From: an uncultured virus (IMG/VR IMGVR_UViG_2690315925_000005) | Taxonomy: Duplodnaviria; Heunggongvirae; Uroviricota; Caudoviricetes | Direction: 5' to 3' (one strand) | Length of the DNA stretch: 20,000 nucleotides | Virus record (IMG/VR): IMGVR_UViG_2690315925_000005 | Position numbers and translations under genes: made by a program | Shown: piece after piece, positions 1 to 12,330 of the stretch | How the letters are laid out: each line of letters begins with the position of its first letter | Position numbering within the stretch: position 1 is the first letter of the stretch | Notes under the pieces: model-generated | Seen by the model: the letters and a program-made list of their open reading frames with translations, nothing else | Database searches by the model: none | What the model was told of the DNA's origin: nothing

Positions 1-192
1 CACCGCCTCGGCCGATGCAGCGACCAGCAGACCTGCCGACCGGCAGGCCAGCGGCGAGGCATCCACGTCGCCGTGATGCCACCCATCGGCCCGGTGGGAG
101 TCCACCCAGTCGGCCAAGACGACCCGCCCAACGAGAGCCTGATGCCCGTTGAGCTCCCCATCCTGAGGATTGGCAAGGCTTCGCGTGTCCAT
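1..192 (-). CDS. Phage hypothetical protein, runs off the left window edge (MDTRSLANPQ...VVLADWVDSHRADGW...CRSAGLLV)
   Basis: ATG overlaps the cro stop (TGATG); frame is open for 64 codons to position 1. Confidence 0.7.
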   Translation of the reverse strand, partial: MDTRSLANPQDGELNGHQALVGRVVLADWVDSHRADGWHHGDVDASPLACRSAGLLVAASAEAV

Positions 193-512
193 CAGGCTGT
201 CTCCAGCGGCACGATGCGGCCGGCGTCCACATCGCCGCTCGGTTCGGCGCGCCGTTCCATAACCGGATCCATAACCGGATCCGCCTGCGCCACCACTTCG
301 GCCAGGCCGCCCCGCTCCAGGCCCTCGAAAGCGTTCAGCGCCTCGATCAGCTGCTGAAGGCTGGCAATCGTCGGATTCGTGATCTGCCCGTGCGCCAGCT
401 TCGTCAGCCACGAATAGCCGATGTCCGGGCTCTGCCGGGCGATCTCGGCGTACTTCCCTTCATGCGCACGCAGGCGCACCACGGTTTGATGCAAGAGGGT
501 ATCGGCGTCCAT
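192..512 (-). CDS. cro: Cro-like XRE-family HTH regulator
   Basis: HTH signature (YAEIARQSPDIGYSWLTKLAHGQITNPTIASLQQL); divergent from the cI-like gene. Confidence 0.8.
   Translation of the reverse strand: MDADTLLHQTVVRLRAHEGKYAEIARQSPDIGYSWLTKLAHGQITNPTIASLQQLIEALNAFEGLERGGLAEVVAQADPVMDPVMERRAEPSGDVDAGRIVPLETA
257..282 (+). repeat. 12-bp tandem duplication (ccataaccggat x2) in cro, encoding DPVM-DPVM
   Basis: Seen directly; in frame. Confidence 0.9.
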
Positions 513-521
513 GACACCAAC

Positions 522-583
522 CTATCATTCTAATGCTAGGCAATCAAGCATCGAAGAGCGTTCAGCCATCACTAGCATGGTAG
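522..583. promoter_or_regulatory. OR-like region: operators CTATCA-ttctaa-TGCTAG (522-539) and CCATCA-ctagca-TGGTAG (566-583); candidate cro promoter on minus strand TTCGAT-17-TAGAAT (555-527)
   Basis: Near-palindromic 18-mers that recur at 1367 and 1398; sigma70-like spacing. Confidence 0.7.
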
Positions 584-585
584 GT

Positions 586-975
586 ATGGCTAAACGTCCC
601 TCGAGTGCAGATGTCATCGCCGCCAATGTGCGCCGATTGATGAAGCACCTGAACCTCTCGCAGGCCGAACTCGGCCGCAAAGCCGGGGTTGCGCAAACTC
701 TCCTGTCGGGGCTCCTGAGCCCGGACGGCGCCTCCAAGAACCCGACATCTTCGACCGTCGACAAGCTTGCCGACGCTTTCAAAATCACCCCTTGGAAGCT
801 GCTGGTTCAGGACATCACGCTGGACAACCTCATGGACGAGGAAATCGAGCGCCTGGTGGACGCTTTCGCCACCGTGCCAGCAGAGGGGCGCCGAACAATT
901 CTGCGGGTGGCGGATGCTGAAGTTCGCTATGCCCAGGTTCCCGCGACCGTTCCGATCAAGAACACAGGGACATGA
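586..975 (+). CDS. cI: CI-like XRE-family repressor (no S24 peptidase domain); start may be 577 or 586
   Basis: IAANVRRLM..LNLSQAELGRKAGVAQTLLSGL..NPTSSTVDKLADAF is an HTH_3-type motif; divergent from cro. Confidence 0.85.
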   Translation: MAKRPSSADVIAANVRRLMKHLNLSQAELGRKAGVAQTLLSGLLSPDGASKNPTSSTVDKLADAFKITPWKLLVQDITLDNLMDEEIERLVDAFATVPAEGRRTILRVADAEVRYAQVPATVPIKNTGT

Positions 976-1330: not shown

Positions 1331-1415
1331 CGATCAATCAGCTGCTTAGCATCACATCACATCAATCTATCATTTTAGTGCTTGACTGACGGATGATCTA
1401 TCACTATGTTGCTAG
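1331..1415 (+). promoter_or_regulatory. OL/PL-like early promoter TTGACT(1382-1387)-17-TATGTT(1405-1410), overlapped by operators at 1367-1384 and 1398-1415 (weaker copy 1331-1348)
   Basis: Near-consensus sigma70 boxes in an AT-rich gap; CTATCA-N6-TGCT(A/T)G repeats. Confidence 0.8.
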
Positions 1416-1430
1416 CCATCCCAAGCACGG

Positions 1431-1934
1431 ATGGTTGAGCACATGTCTGCACTGTCTTCGTCGCTGTACCTGGCACTGGGGGCTCTCGGGGCCACCGGCC
1501 TTGGCGCACTCTTCTCCCCATCGTCCCCTTCCACAGACGAACCCGGCCAGGCCGTCCGGGCACCAGCTGCACTGGTGATCACCAGCCCGCGCATCTGCGC
1601 GGCGCTGGAGGTCTATACCCTGGCCAGCGAGAACGACTGGGGCCTGCGCACCACCATTGCCCAGGCGATGCTCAACGGCTTCAACGACACCGGCCGTGTG
1701 CCGGACTGCGCCGCCGGCGTGTCCGCCGCGCTGGCCAAGGACTTCTCTCCCTACCGCTGGCAGCTTGCGCTCGATGCCGTCGACGCGGTTGTCGCCGGCA
1801 CCTACTCCGTTTCCCCCGACGCGTGCGCCCGGGCCAATACCGTCGTCCCCCTGTCGACGGAAAAAGCCACCTCCCCCGTGGTGGCCCGGGCGCGGTGCGT
1901 CATCTATGACCTGGCTTTCGTGGAGGTGCACTGA
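1431..1934 (+). CDS. Secreted or membrane-anchored protein resembling a degenerate SleB/Hydrolase_2 cell-wall hydrolase (start may be 1443)
   Basis: N-terminal hydrophobic segment; CAALEVYTLASE..G...IAQAMLN...PDC...WQLA...CVIYDLAF parallels the SleB pattern. Confidence 0.55.
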   Translation: MVEHMSALSSSLYLALGALGATGLGALFSPSSPSTDEPGQAVRAPAALVITSPRICAALEVYTLASENDWGLRTTIAQAMLNGFNDTGRVPDCAAGVSAALAKDFSPYRWQLALDAVDAVVAGTYSVSPDACARANTVVPLSTEKATSPVVARARCVIYDLAFVEVH

Positions 1935-2365
1935 TGGCCGCCACCGAACGTCACTGCCGCGTCTGCAGCTGCACTGAGCTGCAGGCCTGCCCCGGTGGTT
2001 GCTCCTGGGCCGGGGCCGACCTTTGCAGCAGCTGCGCCGCAGCTGCAGGCCCTAACGCCGAAGGCGCCATGGCGGTCGTCGCGCGCCAGCGCCTGCTGAT
2101 CGCCGGCAAGGCCATCAAGCTGAGCCGCACCGAGGCCGTCGTGATGAAGGCCCTTGTCGCGACCCCCGATCGCCTCGTGGAAATCGATGCGCTGCATGCG
2201 GCGATGTACCCAGACAGCAAGCCGCCGTCGCGCGAGTCCAACGTCCTTCAGGTGCTGGTCTCGCGCGTGCGCCGCAAGCTCTCAGCTGCTGGCCATAAGC
2301 ACGCAATCGAGACCATCCGCCTGCGCGGCTACCGCTTCGTGATGCCCCAAGGCGGTGCTGCATGA
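1934..2365 (+). CDS. Cys-rich (putative Zn-binding) N-terminus fused to an OmpR/PhoB-type winged-helix DNA-binding domain
   Basis: Seven Cys in the first 35 aa; LSRTE..VMKAL...SNVLQVLVSRVRRKL...IETIRLRGYRF matches Trans_reg_C. Confidence 0.85.
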   Translation: MAATERHCRVCSCTELQACPGGCSWAGADLCSSCAAAAGPNAEGAMAVVARQRLLIAGKAIKLSRTEAVVMKALVATPDRLVEIDALHAAMYPDSKPPSRESNVLQVLVSRVRRKLSAAGHKHAIETIRLRGYRFVMPQGGAA

Positions 2366-2661
2366 GCGCCCAAGTTGAATTCACCGCCAAATGCTTCGGC
2401 GCGAACCTCGGCCTCACCCGAAATCCTGACGGAAGCTGGTGCATGTCGCTCTACACCTTCGTCGGCAAGAACAGGAATCACCGCGGAATTGCCTTCGCAA
2501 CCGCGGTCCCCGGCCAGCTGCCGCGAGTGGATCCGGCTGACGGCGATACCTTTCCCTCTGCAGCCCTGTGGGTCGGGTCGGCATCCTTCGACATACCCGA
2601 TGCCCTGGTGCCGAAGCTGCAGGCCTTCCTCGCCGAACACGCCCAAGGCGGTGCCGCATGA
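2362..2661 (+). CDS. Phage hypothetical protein
   Basis: ATGA-coupled at both ends. Confidence 0.75.
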   Translation: MSAQVEFTAKCFGANLGLTRNPDGSWCMSLYTFVGKNRNHRGIAFATAVPGQLPRVDPADGDTFPSAALWVGSASFDIPDALVPKLQAFLAEHAQGGAA

Positions 2662-2786
2662 GGACGGAAGAGATCATTGCGGAGGCCACCGCCGTGCTGT
2701 TCCGGCGAGTCCTGGCCATCGGCGGCGCGGCGGGCTTCGTGCTGGGTGTCGTGGCAACGCTTGGATCCCGGGCGGTGCTGTCATGA
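2658..2786 (+). CDS. Small hydrophobic phage protein (42 aa)
   Basis: ATGA-coupled at both ends; one TM-like stretch. Confidence 0.65.
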   Translation: MRTEEIIAEATAVLFRRVLAIGGAAGFVLGVVATLGSRAVLS

Positions 2787-3031
2787 ACTCGGTGACCATG
2801 ACCGTCGACGCGGAGATCGACCTCGATGACCTGGTCGGGAATCTGGGCTCCGCCAGCAAGGACTACCTTGCCCGCCTCCTGAAGGTTGAAGGCGAGACCG
2901 CGCGCGCCCCTGACGGCCGCACCTTCGAGCAGATCATCGAAGCCGCCTTCTACGAGGCGCGCGCCATGTCCCCCGTGCCGCCGGCACTGGCCGACCTGCT
3001 CTGGGTAGTGCACGGGAGGGCGATGTCATGA
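2783..3031 (+). CDS. Phage hypothetical protein (82 aa)
   Basis: ATGA-coupled start at 2783 within the 2375..3031 ORF. Confidence 0.7.
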   Translation: MNSVTMTVDAEIDLDDLVGNLGSASKDYLARLLKVEGETARAPDGRTFEQIIEAAFYEARAMSPVPPALADLLWVVHGRAMS

Positions 3032-3291
3032 CGACAGACCTGCACCTCCTAGGCCATGGCGTCGACGCCATCGTGCAGCACGACCTGGACCGCATGCCGC
3101 CGGCGATCACTGCCGCAGCGCGCGTGCAGCGCTACCAGCGCGCGGTGTGTATCGCACCACCGGACCAGTGGCGCGCGCTGCGGATCCGCTTCGGCTCGAT
3201 CTTCCAGATCGCCTGGAGCGCAGGACTGAAGCCGGACCTGGCCACCTGGGCCCGGAAGTTCCAGCGCATCGCCGAGGCCTGCCGACCATGA
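3028..3291 (+). CDS. Phage hypothetical protein
   Basis: ATGA coupling; GGGAGG SD. Confidence 0.75.
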   Translation: MTTDLHLLGHGVDAIVQHDLDRMPPAITAAARVQRYQRAVCIAPPDQWRALRIRFGSIFQIAWSAGLKPDLATWARKFQRIAEACRP

Positions 3292-3446
3292 GGCTCTTCC
3301 ACGTCCACATCCCGGGCGTGGCCAGACCGCACAGCGTCAACGCCGAATCCGAATCGGCCGCGATCGACGACGCGCTCTACACCCTGGGCCTTTCCGAGCT
3401 GCCCGAAGGCAGCAGCGTCACTTCTGAACAGACCGGAGACACCTGA
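3288..3446 (+). CDS. Small phage hypothetical protein (52 aa)
   Basis: ATGA-coupled start; stop overlaps the rdgC ATG. Confidence 0.65.
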   Translation: MRLFHVHIPGVARPHSVNAESESAAIDDALYTLGLSELPEGSSVTSEQTGDT

Positions 3447-4348
3447 TGTTCTTCCGCAACCTCACGATGTTCACCTATCCGCAGCTGCAGATGTTCGACT
3501 GGCAGGACGGCCTGCAGGCGAGCGCCCTGAAACCGGTAGGCCCGCTGGAAATGTGCTCCGCCGGCTTCATTTCGCCATTCGGCCGCGAAGAGAAGGAGCT
3601 GCTGTCGCACGAGATCGGCCGCTGCGTGTGGATGGCCATCGGCGCCGAAGACAAGATCCTGCCGCCGGCCGTGGTGAGCAACCTGCTCGAACTCAAGCTG
3701 CTGGAGATCGAAGAAAAAGAGGGGCGCCGCCCCGGCGGCCGCGAGCGGAAGCGCATCAAGGACGATCTGCTGCACGAGCTGCTGCCGCGGGCCTTCATCC
3801 GCCCTACCCGCACGGATCTCTACCTGGACCACCAGCGCGGTGTCGTGTTCGTCGACACCAGCAGCCGCAAGACCGGCGAGAGCGCCATGAGCCAGTTGCG
3901 CAACGTGGTCGGTAGCTTCCCCGCCCTCCCCCTGAACGCTGAGGTGTCGCCGCGGGCGATCTTGACCGGCTGGCTCGCCGGCGAGTCCTTGCCCGAAGGC
4001 CTCAGCCTGGGCGAGGAATGCGAGCTTCGCGACCCGGTCGAAGGCGGCGCCATCGTCCGCTGCCAGCACCACGAACTGCGCTGCGACGAGGTCGATCTCC
4101 ACCTGGAGACCGGCAAGCAGGTCACCAAGCTCGCCCTGGTGCTGGAGGACCACCTGTCCTTCGTTCTTGGCGACGACCTGATCGTCCGAAAGCTCCGCTT
4201 CTTGGACGGTGCCGTCGAGCAGCTGCAGTACGGGGACGAAGACGGCCGGCGCGCCGAGCTCGATGCCCGCTTCGCTCTGCAGATCGCCGAGGTCGGCCGG
4301 CTGTACGACCTGGTCCGCGAGCAATTCCACCTCACCACCTACGCCTGA
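3446..4348 (+). CDS. rdgC: Recombination-associated protein RdgC (phage-borne)
   Basis: MFFRNL..F, GFISPFG, EDKILP, LLPRAF, GKQVTKLAL, F.LGDDL..RKL.F; 300 aa. Confidence 0.95.
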   Translation: MFFRNLTMFTYPQLQMFDWQDGLQASALKPVGPLEMCSAGFISPFGREEKELLSHEIGRCVWMAIGAEDKILPPAVVSNLLELKLLEIEEKEGRRPGGRERKRIKDDLLHELLPRAFIRPTRTDLYLDHQRGVVFVDTSSRKTGESAMSQLRNVVGSFPALPLNAEVSPRAILTGWLAGESLPEGLSLGEECELRDPVEGGAIVRCQHHELRCDEVDLHLETGKQVTKLALVLEDHLSFVLGDDLIVRKLRFLDGAVEQLQYGDEDGRRAELDARFALQIAEVGRLYDLVREQFHLTTYA

Positions 4349-4355
4349 GGCCCCA

Positions 4356-4607
4356 ATGCATTCGATCCTCGTGACCAGCCACCGTCCATTCCTCAACATG
4401 CTCTTGGCCAGCCTGCTGAGCCAGCCGCGGGCGCACCCCGTAGCACCCGCAGCACCTGTGCGCCGCATGCCGCAACGACACCGCACCACCTGGGCACCGG
4501 CCGGCGGCGGCCGTGCCGAGCGCGCCCGCCGCATGCGCCAGATCCAGGCTGGCACCCTGAACGCATCCAGCGGGCTGACCCCGATCCACAAGGGTGAGCG
4601 GCCGTGA
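4356..4607 (+). CDS. Basic phage hypothetical protein
   Basis: GAGG SD; stop overlaps the next GTG; GGGRAERARRMRQIQAG motif. Confidence 0.65.
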   Translation: MHSILVTSHRPFLNMLLASLLSQPRAHPVAPAAPVRRMPQRHRTTWAPAGGGRAERARRMRQIQAGTLNASSGLTPIHKGERP

Positions 4608-5320
4608 GCCGCTTGCGCGCCTTCATCTGCGCCCTGTTCGGGTGCGCCCGTGACTGGCCGGATATGGAGTCGTGCGGCCGCTGCGGCAACTACATTGATC
4701 TGCAGGCGGCGCCGCGCACGTTGGGGCGCCGCCTCCTGGATCGCCTTGCCACCGCACTGATACAGCGTGGGGCCCGCACGCCGTACTTCCACCTGGTCAA
4801 CGCGGACGGCACGCCGTACATGGATCGCTTCTGGCTGCTGCGCATTGGCCGCGCCGGCGTCGACGACCGCGGCCAGCCCCGCCCCTGGCTGGCCCTGCGC
4901 CTTCATCACATCCGCAGCAGCGACCAAGGCGGCGTCTTCCATGATCACCCCTGGTCGTTCTTCAGCCTGATTCTGCGCGGCGGGTACTTCGAGCACCGGC
5001 CCTTCGATGGGCCGCTGCCGGCGATACCGGATGCGGTGCCGTCGGCGATCGCTGAGGAACCCTACTCGTCGACCTGGTACGGCGCTGGCCAACTGCTGTT
5101 CCGCCGCGCCGAGGGCTGGCACCGCATTGCGCTGGCCGAGGACCTGCAGCACGAGGGCACCTGGACCGTGGTGCTGACCCTGCCGCCCCGCGCCTGCAGC
5201 TGGGGCTTCCGCGTCCGTGGGCAGAAGATCGAACACCGCGCGTACTTCCGGAAGGAAGCAGTCCGGCAGCGCGCGCGGCAGCAGATCCAGGTCCCGAACA
5301 GCTCGGATTGGACCCCGTGA
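4604..5320 (+). CDS. Cupin-like phage protein with N-terminal Cys motif
   Basis: LHHI..SD....HDHPW.F.S.IL.GGY.E ... WHRI (His-rich cupin-type motifs). Confidence 0.7.
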   Translation: MSRLRAFICALFGCARDWPDMESCGRCGNYIDLQAAPRTLGRRLLDRLATALIQRGARTPYFHLVNADGTPYMDRFWLLRIGRAGVDDRGQPRPWLALRLHHIRSSDQGGVFHDHPWSFFSLILRGGYFEHRPFDGPLPAIPDAVPSAIAEEPYSSTWYGAGQLLFRRAEGWHRIALAEDLQHEGTWTVVLTLPPRACSWGFRVRGQKIEHRAYFRKEAVRQRARQQIQVPNSSDWTP

Positions 5321-5323
5321 GCC

Positions 5324-6046
5324 ATGGTGCGCAAGTCACACCCCAACGCGCGCCGACCATGGACCGCCGACGAGGACGAGACGCTGCGGCTCAACTGGCC
5401 GCGCTTCCCTGCTTTCCTGATCGCCCACGTGCTGGAAAGGCCCAGTGCGGCGGTGTACCGACGGGCAGCGACGCTGGGGCTGAAGAAAGCCGACGACTTC
5501 CACACCCAGCCGCTGGCCGCGCTCTGGAACGGGACACAGGAGCCGGGCTCGATTGCCTCGCGCTTCAAGCCCGGCACCACACCACCCAACAAGGGACTGC
5601 GCAGGCCGGGCTGGCACGCCGGCCGAATGCGGGAAACCCAGTTCAAGAAGGGGCGGCCGGCCAGCGAGGCACGCAACTACGTGCCGATCGGGACCGAGAA
5701 GGTGGATCCCAAGCGCAAGGTGCTGATGCGCAAGGTCACAGACGACCCCGGCGTGTTCCCGGTCAATCGCTGGCGTCCGGTGCACGTGATGGTCTGGGAG
5801 GCAGCGAACGGCCCGGTACCGGAAGGACACATCGTGGTGTTCCGGCCCGGCCTGAAGACACTCGTCGCCGCCGAGATCACTGCTGATCGCCTCGAGACCG
5901 TGACCCTCGCCGAGAACATGCGGCGCAACAGCTACCACAACCGGTTCCCTCCGGAACTGAAAGAACTGGTCCACCTGAAGGCGCGAATCACCCGCCGTGT
6001 CAGGAGGCGAATCAAGGAGCAAGAAGATGAAGAACAAGGTCAGTGA
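5324..6046 (+). CDS. HNH_3-like protein with an N-terminal Myb-like helix and FK(P/K)G..P repeats
   Basis: WTADEDETL; FKPG..P.NKG; VH..VWE..NGPVP.G..V.F...LETVT.AEN..RN. Confidence 0.85.
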   Translation: MVRKSHPNARRPWTADEDETLRLNWPRFPAFLIAHVLERPSAAVYRRAATLGLKKADDFHTQPLAALWNGTQEPGSIASRFKPGTTPPNKGLRRPGWHAGRMRETQFKKGRPASEARNYVPIGTEKVDPKRKVLMRKVTDDPGVFPVNRWRPVHVMVWEAANGPVPEGHIVVFRPGLKTLVAAEITADRLETVTLAENMRRNSYHNRFPPELKELVHLKARITRRVRRRIKEQEDEEQGQ

Positions 6047-6284
6047 TGTCCGCGACCACCTGGTGGCCATGCTCGAACGCCTGGGCGACGACGATCTGAA
6101 CGCCGAGCAGATGGGCCAGGTCATCGAGCGCGCCAAGGCCACCACCATCGTGGCCACCACCTACATCGGCGCGGTGAAGGTGGAGCTCGACGCGATCCGG
6201 TTGGCGCACGAAACCGGGAACCTGACGGCCGCAGTTGCCGAGCCGCAGCAGATCCCCTCGCTGCCTGTCGGCCAGAGGCGCTGA
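6027..6284 (+). CDS. Conserved phage protein of the type found beside HNH genes
   Basis: AAGGAG SD; MKNK..D..DHL.A.LERL.DDDL...IERAKA. Confidence 0.8.
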   Translation: MKNKVSDVRDHLVAMLERLGDDDLNAEQMGQVIERAKATTIVATTYIGAVKVELDAIRLAHETGNLTAAVAEPQQIPSLPVGQRR

Positions 6285-6286
6285 CC

Positions 6287-6514
6287 ATGGCAAAGAAACT
6301 CCTGTCCTTGCACGTCAAGGGCAAGCACAAATCCTGGAGCTTCGAGTTCATGGGCGACCCCAAGCACATCCCCGACTGGGAGGCGGATGGCCTGGAGGTG
6401 TGGGAGGTCTGCAACGTCGTCCCCGCATGGATTGCTGACCTCGGCCTTACTCGACCCTGGGTCTTTCTCCAGGACGTCTTCAACTTCAAGAACCCTTGGG
6501 GTCGCAATGGCTGA
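6287..6514 (+). CDS. Phage hypothetical protein
   Basis: Tightly packed in the operon; high-GC3 codon usage. Confidence 0.75.
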   Translation: MAKKLLSLHVKGKHKSWSFEFMGDPKHIPDWEADGLEVWEVCNVVPAWIADLGLTRPWVFLQDVFNFKNPWGRNG

Positions 6515-6746
6515 CCGCAAACGCAACTTCGCGCTCGAGCAGCGCCTGCGCTTCATCGACTTCCTGCTGGACCACTACGGCCGGCTCAACCGCGGCGCCC
6601 TCGTGGACTACTTCGGCATCAGCGTGCCGCAGGCAAGCATTGACATCCGAACCTACCAGGAGCACGCAGGCGCCGAGCAGATGCGGTACGACCTTTCTGA
6701 GAGGTGCTACCTGGCTGAGAAGGGGTTCAAACGATGCTGGCCATGA
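6507..6746 (+). CDS. Stand-alone CapW/BrxR-type N-terminal winged-helix domain (79 aa, no WYL domain)
   Basis: EQRLRFIDFLL..YGRLNR..LVDYFGISVPQASIDI..Y......M.YD.S.R.Y....F matches the N-terminus of CapW-like WYL repressors. Confidence 0.8.
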   Translation: MADRKRNFALEQRLRFIDFLLDHYGRLNRGALVDYFGISVPQASIDIRTYQEHAGAEQMRYDLSERCYLAEKGFKRCWP

Positions 6747-6955
6747 CCTCGAACCATCTGCGAACGGTACCCCTGACCAAGAAGTCCCAGGTATCGGACG
6801 TGCTACACGCCGGCGGCCGCATCGTCGCTGGCCACCGGCCTGGCCTGCTGCAGTTGCTCGACGCCGAGGGCCGCCCAGTCCCTGCCTGGCAAACCGCCCT
6901 GAAGGCCGCTCAGCTCTCGGCCGCACCCTCCGGAGATCCGCATGAACCGCAGTGA
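6743..6955 (+). CDS. Phage hypothetical protein
   Basis: ATGA-coupled. Confidence 0.7.
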   Translation: MTSNHLRTVPLTKKSQVSDVLHAGGRIVAGHRPGLLQLLDAEGRPVPAWQTALKAAQLSAAPSGDPHEPQ

Positions 6956-7682
6956 CGTCCTCCCCCGTTTCCTCGCCGATACGGCCACCCACGAGCTACG
7001 GATCGTGGTCGACGACGGCGTGCACCGCCACCTGCAGTTCCGTCGCCCCGGAACCTACTGCTACGGTTTCGACATCGTGACCTGGCCCGGGCACCTGGCG
7101 ATCTCCGGCGACATGGGCACTGCCGTTTTCAGCCGCCTGCACGACATGTTCGAGTTCTTCCGTGCCAAGCCCGCCGAGCACGAAAAGGCCGGCGGCCTGT
7201 TCGTGAACGATGGCTACTGGGCAGAGAAGTGCGTGGCCAACGACGGCGAGAAGAAGGAATTCAGCGCGGCACTCTTCCGCGCGCTGGTGACCCGCCTGTT
7301 CAAAGAGCACGTTGAGGAACGTGTGGACCCCGACGATCTGGCGGATCCGGACACGTCGACGCCGGAGTGGGTGGCCAGGTTGTGGCAGGAGCTCGAGGTC
7401 GAAGTGCTGAACGACTCGGAGGATCACGACGCCCTGTGCAACGCGATCAAGGCGATGTCGGACTTCGCGCCGAGCGACCCCGACTACAGCGACTTTCGCA
7501 TCACTGACGCCTGGGAATACGCATCCTCGCTGCAGCAGTACACCTTCCACTTCCTCTGGCGCCTGTACGCGATCGCCCGCGCGATCCGCGCCTACGACGA
7601 TGCCGCCGACACTGCCGAGCCGTCAGGACTGCCAGCCGACATCGCCATACCTATCCAACTGACCGAGGTCACCAATGCGTGA
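6942..7682 (+). CDS. Conserved phage hypothetical protein
   Basis: GGAG SD; DDG.HRHL.FRRPGT..Y.FDI.TWPG.L.ISGDMG..VF.R..DMF.FFR...YWAEK. Confidence 0.85.
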   Translation: MNRSDVLPRFLADTATHELRIVVDDGVHRHLQFRRPGTYCYGFDIVTWPGHLAISGDMGTAVFSRLHDMFEFFRAKPAEHEKAGGLFVNDGYWAEKCVANDGEKKEFSAALFRALVTRLFKEHVEERVDPDDLADPDTSTPEWVARLWQELEVEVLNDSEDHDALCNAIKAMSDFAPSDPDYSDFRITDAWEYASSLQQYTFHFLWRLYAIARAIRAYDDAADTAEPSGLPADIAIPIQLTEVTNA

Positions 7683-7728: not shown

Positions 7729-8481
7729 CTATGGGCGCTCTCCCCTCCCCGCGCGGAGATCGAACTTGGAGAAATCGTAGGGTTCTGCCCCAGAGAACGC
7801 TCGAACGTTTGCAGCTGTTTCCATGCAATAGGCAGAGAAAACTTCGACGTACTCCTTGAGACTTCTTACCTGCTCCATCGAGCCTGCAAACACCCTTATC
7901 TCTGCAGGGAAGTGATTAGTGCGAGTGTGCGTCTTCACCTGCGAAAGCAACGTCTTGCAGTTTGCGCTCAATGTGCGGCCGTACCCAATCAACACTGCGA
8001 GATCATTCCCAATGTTCTCTGGCAAGTAGTGAAGTCTATCTTCCGATTTCTCGGTACCAGGCAGAAGCGATTGCTCCCCCAACCGGAATGTGCGCTCCAA
8101 GAAACCGACCTCCTCTTCGGTTGTTGGAGCACCTCGATTCAGAGCCCTGATGCAGTGCTGATGCAGGATATACAGCTGCGTCGGCAATTCCGAGACCTCG
8201 TGTACCAGCACTCGAGCGACGATCCGAGCGTTGCCGTCCCTCGCCCCAACGATTTCCAGGTGCTGCTGCTTGGCGATTCTTGTCGCCTCGGCAGCAATCG
8301 ACGTCGCTTTGCGAGACGTCCGATAGGCAAGGACTGCAACGACTGTTGTGGCCAACACCGCAAAGACACCAACCCAAACCGATGCCCAGGCCGCGACCAT
8401 GGATAGCAAAGCCATCAGGACACCTGCCCAATCGGCCAAGTTGCCTAGATCAGCAGCCACCAAACATGTGCTCACCCGCAT
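7729..8481 (-). CDS. Antisense moron: N-terminal transmembrane protein of unknown function (start 8481 ATG or 8475 GTG)
   Basis: Visibly lower GC than flanks; AAAGGGG SD; long hydrophobic N-terminus followed by a helical domain. Confidence 0.75.
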   Translation of the reverse strand: MRVSTCLVAADLGNLADWAGVLMALLSMVAAWASVWVGVFAVLATTVVAVLAYRTSRKATSIAAEATRIAKQQHLEIVGARDGNARIVARVLVHEVSELPTQLYILHQHCIRALNRGAPTTEEEVGFLERTFRLGEQSLLPGTEKSEDRLHYLPENIGNDLAVLIGYGRTLSANCKTLLSQVKTHTRTNHFPAEIRVFAGSMEQVRSLKEYVEVFSAYCMETAANVRAFSGAEPYDFSKFDLRAGRGERP

Positions 8482-8561
8482 CCCCTTTCTGCGCTTAGAC
8501 CTGAGTGATTCTCCCATGACTTCGCTCGAGAGCTCCACAGCTTGGCTACCAGAGATCCCTC

Positions 8562-8840
8562 GTGAGTAACTACGACGCCCCCGCACGAGGATTGCCGAGG
8601 CCCGGATCCCCCGCGAACCTGCGCCCGGTCCGGTTCGTCACGCTCAAACAGTTCGAGACGCTGACCGGCTACACGGTCGACGCGGTCAACTCGAAGATCA
8701 AGCGTGGCGATTGGCTGGAGGGCGCCGTCTTCATCAAGGCGCCAGATGGAAGAAACCTGATCGACCTGGAGGGGTACGAAGAGTGGGTAATGCACGGCAA
8801 GGCGGCGTCAGGCCAGCTACACAGAGCAGCATCGCAATAG
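8562..8840 (+). CDS. xis: Excisionase
   Basis: RFVTLKQF..LTGYT.DAV..KIKRG.W.EG....KAPDGR.LIDLEGYEEWV; overlaps the int start. Confidence 0.85.
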   Translation: MSNYDAPARGLPRPGSPANLRPVRFVTLKQFETLTGYTVDAVNSKIKRGDWLEGAVFIKAPDGRNLIDLEGYEEWVMHGKAASGQLHRAASQ

Positions 8841-9958
8841 ACTTCTACTATAGGGGCAAGCGTTGCCGTGAGCGGATCAAGCTCGCCCCGACCGCTCGGA
8901 ATCTGCGCTACTGCGAAAATCTGCTGGGGCAGATCAAGGTCGAGATCGAGAAAGGCACCTTCGACTATGCCACCCACTTCCCCGGCAGCAAGCGCGCGGT
9001 GCAGGTGGCAGAGAAGCCAGCGGCCCTCGACACCCTGGAGCAGGTGCTGACTCGGTGGCTGGCACAGAAGGAGCCTGAGCTCGAGCACAGCAGCCTGATT
9101 GGCTACCGGCGCATCGTCGAGAACATCCTGGTGCCGCGCTGCGGAGCGATTGCGTTGCGTGACTTCAACCGTATCGCCCTGAAGGAGCTGGTGGCCACAT
9201 TCGACGAGTCGACGTCGGCCAAGCGCATCAACAACGTTCTGGGCCCGCTCCGCGGCGCCCTCGATGAGGCCGTAGCCGACGACTTGATCCCCAGCAATCC
9301 CCTCGACGGGTTCCGGGTGAAGCGGCGCGCCAAGGCCAACGCGCGCGAGGAGGTCGACCCCTTCACGCCGGAGGAAGTCCAGGCGATCCTGGCCGCCTGT
9401 CGCGAGGACCAGGTCCGCAATTACTGCCAGTTCAACTTTGCCACGGGCCTGCGCACCTCGGAAATGATCGGTCTCTGCTGGTCGGACATCGATTGGCGCA
9501 AGGGCACAGTCAAGATCCGGCGCGCCTGGGTCATGGGCAAGATGAAGGCCCCCAAGACCGAGTCCGGCGTGCGCGAAGTGCAGCTGCTGCAGCCGGCGAT
9601 CGACGCCCTGAAGGCTCAGCGGGCCCACACCGCCACCGCCGGCGAGTTCGTCTTCCACGATCCCAGGACGAATGCCCGATGGGGGTCCGACCAAAGCATC
9701 CGCGCTGGCGAATGGCAGCGCGCGCTGCGCAAGGCCGGGGTGAGGTACCGGTACCCGTATCAGATGCGCCACACCTTCGCCTCACAAGCGCTCAGCGCTG
9801 GCGAGAACGTCATGTGGGTGGCCCGGCAGATGGGGCATCGGGACTGGACGATCACAGCGAAAAAGTACGGCCGTTGGATCCCGTCGATGGTCCCCGATGC
9901 GGGCGCGAAGGCCGCGGCTGTCTGGAAGCCCGAGCTTATGCATTCGGGCATCAAGTAG
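8783..9958 (+). CDS. int: Phage tyrosine integrase with N-terminal arm-binding (DUF3596-type) domain
   Basis: GTG with GGAGGGG SD; TGLRTSE, PKT, YQMRHT, QMGH, KKY catalytic motifs. Confidence 0.95.
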   Translation: MGNARQGGVRPATQSSIAIDFYYRGKRCRERIKLAPTARNLRYCENLLGQIKVEIEKGTFDYATHFPGSKRAVQVAEKPAALDTLEQVLTRWLAQKEPELEHSSLIGYRRIVENILVPRCGAIALRDFNRIALKELVATFDESTSAKRINNVLGPLRGALDEAVADDLIPSNPLDGFRVKRRAKANAREEVDPFTPEEVQAILAACREDQVRNYCQFNFATGLRTSEMIGLCWSDIDWRKGTVKIRRAWVMGKMKAPKTESGVREVQLLQPAIDALKAQRAHTATAGEFVFHDPRTNARWGSDQSIRAGEWQRALRKAGVRYRYPYQMRHTFASQALSAGENVMWVARQMGHRDWTITAKKYGRWIPSMVPDAGAKAAAVWKPELMHSGIK

Positions 9959-11063: not shown

Positions 11064-11258
11064 CGGCATCTGTATTAGATGCGCCACACCTTCGCCTCCC
11101 AGGCGCTTATCGCGGGCGAGAACGCTATGCGGGTGACGTGGGAGGGGCATAGGGACGGGACGACGGGCGCCCCAAAGTACGGCCGCTGGCCCCCATCGAC
11201 GATCCCTGGTGCCGGCGCCCAGGCCGCTGCAGTGTGGGTGCCGAAGTCTGCCATCTAG
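11064..11258 (+). pseudogene. Decayed copy of the integrase 3' end
   Basis: Aligns by eye with 9749-9925 (ATGCGCCACACCTTCGCCTC..., AAAGTACGGCCG.TGG...) with a CAG>TAG change and indels. Confidence 0.9.
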
Positions 11259-11976: not shown

Positions 11977-12330
11977 GGGGGTGCATTGGTTTCGACGGGG
12001 GTTGTGAAGTCGCCTGGCGCATGCCGAGGGGGTAGCTTTCCTCGTAAATCCAGCTGCAAAACTCTAGTTGCCAACGACGACAACTACGCTCTGGCCGCTT
12101 AAGGCCTAAGCCTCGAAACCGCTTGTGTCCATGCTCGCGGTGTAGAGTCACTATCATGGAATCGCGCTGGGTGGCTGCCTGTCAGTCCGGCACTAGAACA
12201 CAACAGGCTGGTTCCCGGATGCGCTTTGCACGCCGTGCTGTTCGGGGACGAGATCCAACGGTGAGCTAAGCATGTAGTGCTGGGGATGGAGTGCCTTCGG
12301 ACGGCGGTTCAATTCCGCCCACCTCCACCA
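11977..12330 (+). ncRNA. ssrA: tmRNA; tag ANDDNYALAA* at 12070-12102
   Basis: 5' GGGGGTG pairs with 3' CACCTCC-ACCA; GGTTTCGAC; T-arm GGCGGTTCAATTCCGCC; tag ending ALAA. Confidence 0.99.

Follow-up and report, generated by a model that had tools for sequence, protein, structure and literature searches.

A phage-borne family of stand-alone CapW-type winged-helix domains and its possible action at host defence operators

Introduction

CapW and BrxR are host repressors of defence operons in which an N-terminal winged helix is followed by a linker, a WYL domain and a WCX domain. The pocket that binds single-stranded DNA (ssDNA) is located within WYL and WCX (PMC11662680), and the full-length proteins are reported to dimerise through residues past the winged helix, in the linker and WYL regions (PMC9122589). 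Within full-length CapW dimers, each winged helix packs on the WYL domain of its partner (PMC11662680, bioRxiv 2022.01.04.474952). DNA binding by Stenotrophomonas maltophilia CapW needs R32, S42, Q45 and S47 (bioRxiv 2022.01.04.474952), and R17 is needed in Escherichia fergusonii BrxR, for which a single repeat, bound as a dimer, is enough (PMC9122601). CBASS needs CapW derepression to lower the yield of lambda about 100-fold on induction, and the same derepression is dispensable against lytic lambda (PMC11662680). Derepression through WYL proteins has also been described as priming the survivors of a restricted infection against phage inhibitors (PMC13622015). Full-length dimers of CapW and BrxR bind DNA at about 0.1-3 µM.

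Aca proteins are small phage HTH proteins of accessory regions that repress their own operon via an inverted repeat. The 79-residue phage protein described here differs from them, since we saw no inverted repeat in its own operon and its domain stems from a host defence repressor. The nearest conceptual precedent is the truncated, receiver-less Spo0A of phages, which likewise keeps the DNA-binding effector domain and drops the sensor (PMC10294663). Phage Spo0A is proposed to work without the host signal, and its function is likewise put forward as a proposal; it belongs to an unrelated protein family, and its target is sporulation, not immunity (PMC10294663). OrbA blocks the BREX machinery as such and is titrated out once BrxR derepresses (PMC13622015). 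It meets the same host systems as those proposed here as the target of the 79-residue protein, which would act upstream, on derepression. Throughout the literature covered, the named counter-defences aim at effectors, not at the regulatory layer.

Results

A CapW-type winged helix that ends before the sensor domains

The window, a 20,000-nucleotide stretch of an uncultured caudoviricete (IMG/VR record IMGVR_UViG_2690315925_000005), carries a winged-helix gene (Table 1) that has its first 8 bases, from the ATG on, in common with the upstream gene and whose stop shares the ATGA at 6743-6746 with the start of the next gene. When the 79-residue product was compared with PDB sequences by phmmer, it matched the CapW proteins of Pseudomonas aeruginosa (7tb5, E 1.2e-13), S. 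maltophilia (7tb6, E 3.7e-12) and Rhizobium leguminosarum (9c5g, E 1.2e-10) as well as Acinetobacter BrxR (7t8k, E 0.001), and all four matches fall on the N-terminal ~80 residues of the targets. The AlphaFold2 model (mean pLDDT 93.3) has 7tb5 as its top Foldseek match (TM 0.93, rmsd 0.8), and VIA-align returned Z scores of 11.0-14.7 for six CapW/BrxR entries and at most 8.4 for all others. The protein thus shares with CapW (7TB5, 7TB6, 9C5G) both the winged-helix fold and the DNA-binding residues; the solved structures are ~42% identical to it, and CapW domains from genomes reach 56%. BrxR (7QFZ, 7T8K) has the same fold (Z 13-14.5), and its essential R17/R11 corresponds to the invariant R13 of the phage protein; it is farther away in sequence (27-31%), and the domains missing relative to it are those missing relative to CapW. 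BrxR operators share the 5-bp spacer of the CapW-type operator, as far as they are described in the sources covered.

Sequence and fold together confirm that the protein belongs to WHD_BrxR, the label PF26109 being the precomputed annotation of its homologues (55/55) and of ESM Atlas; the local Pfam copy gave no relevant match, and no PHROG, NCBIfam or PADLOC model matched. Translation stops after residue 79, before the linker, WYL and WCX domains. A linker-WYL-WCX profile built from 26 full-length proteins found nothing in the six frames of the window or at 58 stand-alone loci, and matched a single locus, which is full-length (L059). These results bear out the sequence-only reading, which had described a coupled 79-residue gene matching the N-terminal winged helix of CapW-like proteins and ending before any WYL domain. 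Its caveat on dimerisation also holds, because the linker and WYL regions through which the full-length proteins dimerise are absent. Likewise, since the ssDNA pocket sits in the missing WYL and WCX domains, the protein is predicted not to leave DNA in response to ssDNA. CapW sits by a defence operon with an operator upstream, whereas the 79-residue gene lies in a phage accessory region without such an operator. Lacking WYL and WCX domains, a linked defence operon and an operator of its own, it is not a CapW or BrxR gene proper.

A 119-residue reading from the ATG at 6387 was rejected: homologues start at the equivalent of position 6507 (median length 76 residues, 161/194 at most 90), and the frame from 6387 overlaps a real gene, the 75-residue one of Table 1.

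Table 1. Features of the window and, in the last row, a CapW-type site in related two-copy phages.
Feature	Position	Strand	Remarks
cro-like gene	192-512	-	HTH_3 and PHROG repressor matches
cI-like gene	511-975	+	HTH_3 and PHROG repressor matches
Two CI-operator-like palindromes	1367-1384, 1398-1415	.	resemble 522-539 and 566-583 between cro and cI
Predicted early pL-type promoter	1382..1410	+	sigma70-like TTGACT-17-TATGTT, consensus match only
Receiver-less OmpR/PhoB-type Trans_reg_C gene	1934..2365	+	PF00486, E 1.3e-13
75-aa gene upstream of the winged-helix gene	6287..6514	+	no Pfam, PHROG or NCBIfam match
Stand-alone CapW-type winged helix-turn-helix gene	6507..6746	+	WHD_BrxR/PF26109; 79 codons, TGA stop
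Small downstream gene	6743..6955	+	ATGA-coupled to the winged-helix gene
Excisionase and tyrosine integrase	8562..9958	+	end of the prophage arm
tmRNA	11977-12330		
Near-perfect CapW-type site	L032:1791-1811		relatives L033, L034, L037, L038, G839; upstream of PAGEV RNA 1865-2117

The gene belongs to an accessory cassette of a prophage operon

The winged-helix gene is part of a run of same-strand genes (1431-7682) headed by the predicted pL-type promoter. The two palindromes at this promoter may be CI operators; the pattern used to compare them was made from the compared sites themselves, with 0-2 mismatches, and so describes a resemblance, not an independent test. The run is probably a CI-controlled early operon, and from its position within it the winged-helix gene would be expressed on induction or early in infection. 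The sequence-only reading had called it an early gene, and of this the place in a same-strand operon is borne out, the label itself following from that place. One contig from an RNA library (6062-7607) spans the gene and may be DNA, and two raw RNA runs were essentially without this prophage. The likely host is Stenotrophomonas, since the closest named homologues of the protein come from there.

Elsewhere, the prophage arm holds rdgC and an HNH gene. The product of the OmpR/PhoB-type gene aligns to the C-terminal part only of PhoP/PhoB models and has a cysteine-rich segment preceding its DNA-binding domain, so that the operon contains a second sensor-less regulator domain.

The 75-residue gene and the winged-helix gene form a cassette that is present, always with both genes, in 3 of 22 related prophage loci, one of which (L003/L166) nearly duplicates the window and does not count as independent; the other 19 share the flanking operon but lack the cassette. 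In prophages without the cassette, the 5' part of the equivalent of the small downstream gene is a different segment of ~46-50 codons, and this part appears to have been replaced where the cassette is present. Three related prophages (L200, L192, L193) carry other insertions, including a 333-residue gene, in this slot with the same genes on either side, which marks it as a variable accessory site. At other loci the genes upstream of the winged-helix gene differ, and the 75-residue gene is no partner there. A fixed partner gene that supplies dimerisation was considered and rejected, as the neighbours vary between loci.

Three further observations concern the rest of the window. Between the early operon and xis, a lower-GC gene of 285 codons without a family match (7729-8586, minus strand) is a candidate lysogen-expressed moron. 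A short open reading frame (11079-11258, plus strand) resembles the C-terminus of the prophage integrase and is probably the remnant of an earlier integration. Past the tmRNA, the segment 12373-19000 encodes an integrase, a MobA relaxase, a GmrSD-N/ParB-like gene with PADLOC matches to NsnA and PD-T4-2_A, and a HEPN gene, and is likely a mobilisable defence island.

Stand-alone domains form a conserved phage family

All 55 candidates from a single-sequence search were 72-104 residues long and annotated as PF26109, and a profile search gave 579 short matches at E<=1e-8 among 924 candidates, the top 120 measuring 73-145 residues. In IMG/VR, 49 of 50 viral loci stop 0-6 residues from the end of the domain, the exception being L051. 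The records concerned, among them proviruses and terminal-repeat genomes, vary in size between 7 kb, for fragments, and 269 kb. No full-length copy was found in 49 phage records, ten of which carry two stand-alone copies, the second being divergent; on GTDB contigs, seven of eight loci were stand-alone and one was full-length. The only clear member from a cultured phage is CPT_Sonora_088 of Stenotrophomonas phage Sonora; Salmonella phage Arash and Yersinia phage fHe-Yen9-02 have weak matches (E 1e-3 to 5e-3) in genes of ~110 codons. Short WHD_BrxR clusters in ESM Atlas are 50-77% viral and bear automatic names only. Six proteins (P0057, P0279, P0075, P0093, P0100, P0102) have N-terminal extensions, with the winged helix always C-terminal, and two of these, P0057 and P0279, are natural fusions of the winged helix to an XRE HTH.

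Close pairs with both types of change had Nei-Gojobori dN/dS values of 0.10-0.42; one pair with three changes reached 0.57, and six pairs had synonymous changes only. After an 80% identity filter, 203 stand-alone and 70 full-length domains were compared. Left outside this set were matches of fewer than 58 columns, sequences more than 80% identical, one frameshifted protein, one repeat protein and 50 proteins with 4-99 residues past the domain, 30 of which look like fragments of full-length proteins and 20 stand-alone-like or intermediate. One full-length row (L086, 1/70) comes from an unpublished genome, G203, and no claim depends on it. The two groups separate in the tree with no misplaced row (FastTree support 0.77, or 0.95 without the recognition-helix columns), the full-length set having been found with the stand-alone profile and leaning to close relatives. 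In a subsample of 40 stand-alone and 30 full-length domains, the stand-alone copies fall on one side of a 97/91 branch that adjoins a CapW-type protein at 94/78, in a midpoint-rooted tree of 74 columns whose bootstrap had not fully settled.

The window's gene is thus a member of a conserved phage family of sensor-less CapW-type DNA-binding domains, carried as accessory genes by phages and, at least once, by a plasmid-like contig. The trees indicate that the family split once from full-length CapW, with the DNA-contact residues kept. The sequence-only reading would have been refuted had the homologues been truncated pseudogenes; a pseudogene or split gene is rejected on the conserved end point, the purifying selection and the missing WYL remnant, and the copies form a large family with a lineage of its own. 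The domain search and the count of stand-alone copies that it had called for gave the PF26109 annotation and the viral loci reported above. In the literature covered, mostly open-access main texts, we found no description of stand-alone phage CapW/BrxR domains, nor are they mentioned in the accessible text of a BREX survey (PMC12839542) or of the Sonora announcement (PMC9022593). The phage family, which is maintained by selection and descends from a repressor of host defences, is apparently undescribed.

The plasmid-like setting is that of L116, where a stand-alone copy (8003-8218, minus strand) lies among parA/parB, traD and IS21 genes; in the host family concerned, capW often flanks the anti-plasmid Wadjet system.

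The neighbours of the window's gene are phage accessory genes, and it does not stand beside a defence operon. Across the family, a Pfam scan of 250 of the 291 listed neighbours found one Lar, two H-NS and four DNA methyltransferase matches, most neighbours being without a family, and no known anti-defence gene as a constant neighbour. H-NS-like genes occur within 5 kb in five of the clustered loci, a count made with no control set. Five loci (L004, L005, L009, L035, L057) have reverse transcriptase and Avd-like genes within 5 kb of the stand-alone gene, L004 additionally Lcl, and resemble diversity-generating retroelements.

DNA-contact residues are kept and other positions are newly fixed

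By alignment, R32, S42, Q45 and S47 of S. maltophilia CapW correspond to R29, S39, Q42 and S44 of the 79-residue protein, and R17 of E. fergusonii BrxR to R13, which is invariant in the family; all five residues needed for binding in CapW and BrxR are therefore kept. The segment FGISVPQAS is identical in P. aeruginosa and E. coli CapW. Across the family the recognition helix is more variable than in host CapW. R29, S39, Q42 and S44 are all present in 109/203 stand-alone and 60/70 full-length domains, and the backbone-type R13 and R29 are better conserved than the base-reading Q42 and S44. The exact Q..S helix word of CapW is found in 113/203 stand-alone domains, with S39 conserved in 99% of these. 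In 33/203 the helix word is non-Q and T-type, similar to that of certain BrxR-like full-length proteins, and it occurs at several places in the tree (19 changes vs 31 shuffled). The two copies in the L032 clade and in L050 have different helix words and are 33-43% identical.

The family also has signature residues unlike those of CapW. W23 (100%), R20 (87%) and D31 (85%), near-fixed in full-length CapW only, are replaced, and R15 (96%), L20 (79%), Y24 (84%), Y35 (83%) and R76 (82%) are newly fixed. D34 and Y35 covary with R76 (z 4.2 and 3.0), a weak signal at Meff 193 that cannot separate contacts within a chain from those between chains; it suggests that the tail folds back onto its own domain. 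We infer that the domain may have been re-finished for standing alone, by self-capping or through a new dimer surface. The net positive charge is 3.0 for stand-alone and 1.8 for host domains.

CapW operators lie at host capW promoters and are mostly missing from phages

Gibbs sampling of 34 regions upstream of full-length genes from two host families yielded the palindrome GCGTATA-N5-TATACGC as the CapW operator, and leave-one-out scores beat shuffled sequences (p<=0.05) in 25/34. In a held-out test the top matches fell inside the capW promoter at four of four loci: scores were 19.5 at the E. coli CBASS locus, plus 11.4 within the probe printed in PMC11662680, up to 22.7 on Klebsiella and E. 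albertii plasmids, and 19.7 at L162. The higher-scoring site of the E. coli CBASS promoter is 33 bp away from the published-probe site. Operators come in arrays, with a distance between sites of 17 bp in 22 cases and of 15 bp in six, and such arrays occur at 19/34 capW promoters of the training set. The capW promoters of L097-L115, L162 and L225-L227 have arrays of 2-3 overlapping palindromes.

Of the 14 phage records scanned, 827 kb in all, a single AT-rich record had such an array. A complete phage record encoding an identical 79-residue protein (G005) had a top operator score of 10.7, against a shuffled maximum of 11.8, and a mismatch pattern of the operator hit 11/50 phage records compared with 14/50 for the reversed control. 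Upstream of 36 phage operons no shared palindrome rose above shuffles (6.6-7.8 bits vs 6.9-7.3 shuffled), in a scan that used the nearest gap, from which the true promoter may differ at some loci; the capW promoters, as a positive control, gave 11.2-15.3 bits vs 7.5-8.6. The window's gene has no palindromic operator in its own or shared promoter. A site of score 15 in L013, which falls in AT-rich, repetitive DNA, was taken as chance.

The exception is a near-perfect operator (score 20.6) common to six near-identical two-copy phages (Table 1), which precedes a PAGEV RNA by ~55 bp and lies ~3.2 kb upstream of the stand-alone genes. Its chance is 1.6e-8 to 1.1e-7 per position depending on GC content, or 0.01-0.09 sites expected in 827 kb, and part of it coincides with a -10-like hexamer. 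This site supports possible self-regulation in the L032 clade, or regulation of these phages by host CapW. Overall, the presence of operators at capW promoters and their absence from most of the scanned phages argues against self-regulation and, together with the kept DNA contacts, fits a target in the host.

Among 17 Burkholderiaceae capW loci scanned with PADLOC (the neighbours of two further loci were left out), 14 had a defence-family match beside capW, including seven Wadjet JetA and four CBASS. Full-length matches occurred in at least 34/400 and at least 42/399 sampled genomes, about a tenth, these counts being floors with at most 14 candidates scored per genome. Of eight genomes carrying a stand-alone copy, only two were seen to have a full-length gene as well: in G858 both proteins contain the Q..S word and an operator array accompanies the host gene, and in G004 the helix words of the two copies differ.

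Discussion

We tentatively propose that the 79-residue protein, lacking the sensor, sits on host CapW operators and so prevents defence from being induced during prophage induction, a reading to which we give a little less than an even chance. The protein would be made from the early operon at prophage induction or on phage infection, at the time when ssDNA would bind host CapW or BrxR and cause it to leave its GCGTATA-N5-TATACGC operators, freeing CBASS, Wadjet, Pycsar or BREX promoters. Blind to ssDNA, the phage domain could fill the vacated operators and keep the promoter blocked. High expression might offset the lost dimerisation region, as might cooperative binding on operator arrays with sites 15 or 17 bp apart, or a new surface made from the family-specific residues R15, L20, Y24 and D34/Y35 with R76/W78. 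Each step of this model, from binding and oligomer state to repression, is inferred. As the same operator consensus holds for two host families, many defence loci could come within reach of a single protein, and second copies with different recognition helices would broaden the range of operators. Silencing would be useful at induction, provided that the domain can hold the operator, since CBASS needs CapW derepression to curb that process (PMC11662680). The sequence-only reading had placed the silencing in lytic growth. Its silencer idea gains from the kept DNA contacts and the mostly host-side operators, and its timing is less likely than prophage induction, because derepression mattered against lambda induction and not against lytic lambda (PMC11662680). 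The accessory distribution, variable neighbours and divergent second copies are typical of conflict genes and favour silencing.

Several findings weaken this proposal. The dimerisation regions of CapW and BrxR are missing, and even dimers bind in the 0.1-3 µM range; conservation of the recognition helix falls short of that in host CapW; full-length targets were found in only about a tenth of the sampled genomes, and in just two of the eight genomes with a stand-alone copy, with differing helix words in one of the two; the six phages of one clade themselves carry a near-perfect operator; large, probably lytic phages carry copies, and CapW induction is dispensable against lytic lambda; and the Pfam scan of neighbours showed no constantly linked anti-defence gene of a known kind. 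The broader idea, that phages and some plasmids turned the DNA-binding domain of a host defence repressor into signal-blind repressors that sit on the conserved CapW/BrxR operators and cancel the damage-induced up-regulation of several unrelated defences at once, is a possibility that we rate somewhat short of even. If true, counter-defence would here act on how immune genes are regulated, by means of the host's own repressor domain, and blocking one shared operator would disable the induction of CBASS, Wadjet, Pycsar and BREX together.

Other functions would account for parts of the same evidence. The captured domain might regulate the phage's own transcription or DNA transactions from a site on the phage genome, in the manner of Aca or at a replication or early promoter. 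The near-perfect site of the two-copy clade, the XRE HTH fusions and a drift of the recognition helix that could mirror new phage-specific sites all speak for this; yet that exceptional site overlaps a -10-like hexamer, the complete phage with the identical protein has no CapW-type site, pattern matches are no commoner than the control, and the 36 operons share no upstream palindrome. The gene, moreover, has no fixed place at operon heads and is missing from 19 of 22 related prophages whose operon is otherwise the same, so that we consider such a role unlikely, at roughly one chance in five. Slightly below that level we place a low-specificity monomer that coats AT-rich host or phage DNA, as an H-NS-like or shielding protein with no particular operator. 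It would agree with the missing dimerisation domain, with a net positive charge slightly above that of host domains, with the stronger conservation of backbone-type than of base-reading residues, and with the H-NS-like genes near five clustered loci, counted without a control; a Q..S word kept in more than half of the family, with a nearly invariant S39, is beyond what non-specific binding needs.

The target could also be host CapW or BrxR itself, if the phage domain docked where the repressor's own winged helix packs and thereby either locked the repressor on DNA or broke it and derepressed defence, an outcome that would favour a resident element over its competitors. The packing of the full-length winged helix on the partner's WYL domain makes such docking conceivable, and a hydrophobic stripe (F16, F19, L20, Y24) is kept on helix 1 of the family. 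W23, R20 and D31, which may face the linker/WYL region and are near-invariant in full-length CapW, are nevertheless lost, the weak covariation of D34 and Y35 with R76 hints that the tail packs on its own domain, and derepression makes little sense for a gene of an early lytic operon; we regard protein contact as rather improbable. That the gene is neutral debris, a truncated capW acquired by recombination, might be suspected from its presence in only three of 22 related prophages and from the truncated full-length genes in protein databases, as which 30 of the 50 intermediate-tail proteins appear. The dN/dS values and the conserved terminus largely refute it, and the signature residues, the single lineage and the lack of a WYL remnant nearby also stand against it, leaving it a very small probability.

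Should the proteins have a function other than silencing host defence promoters, several hundred unannotated phage proteins would still have gained a clear origin. ESM Atlas also holds viral clusters of stand-alone HTH_11 domains of 82-87 residues, which are possibly sensor-less copies from other families of WYL regulators.
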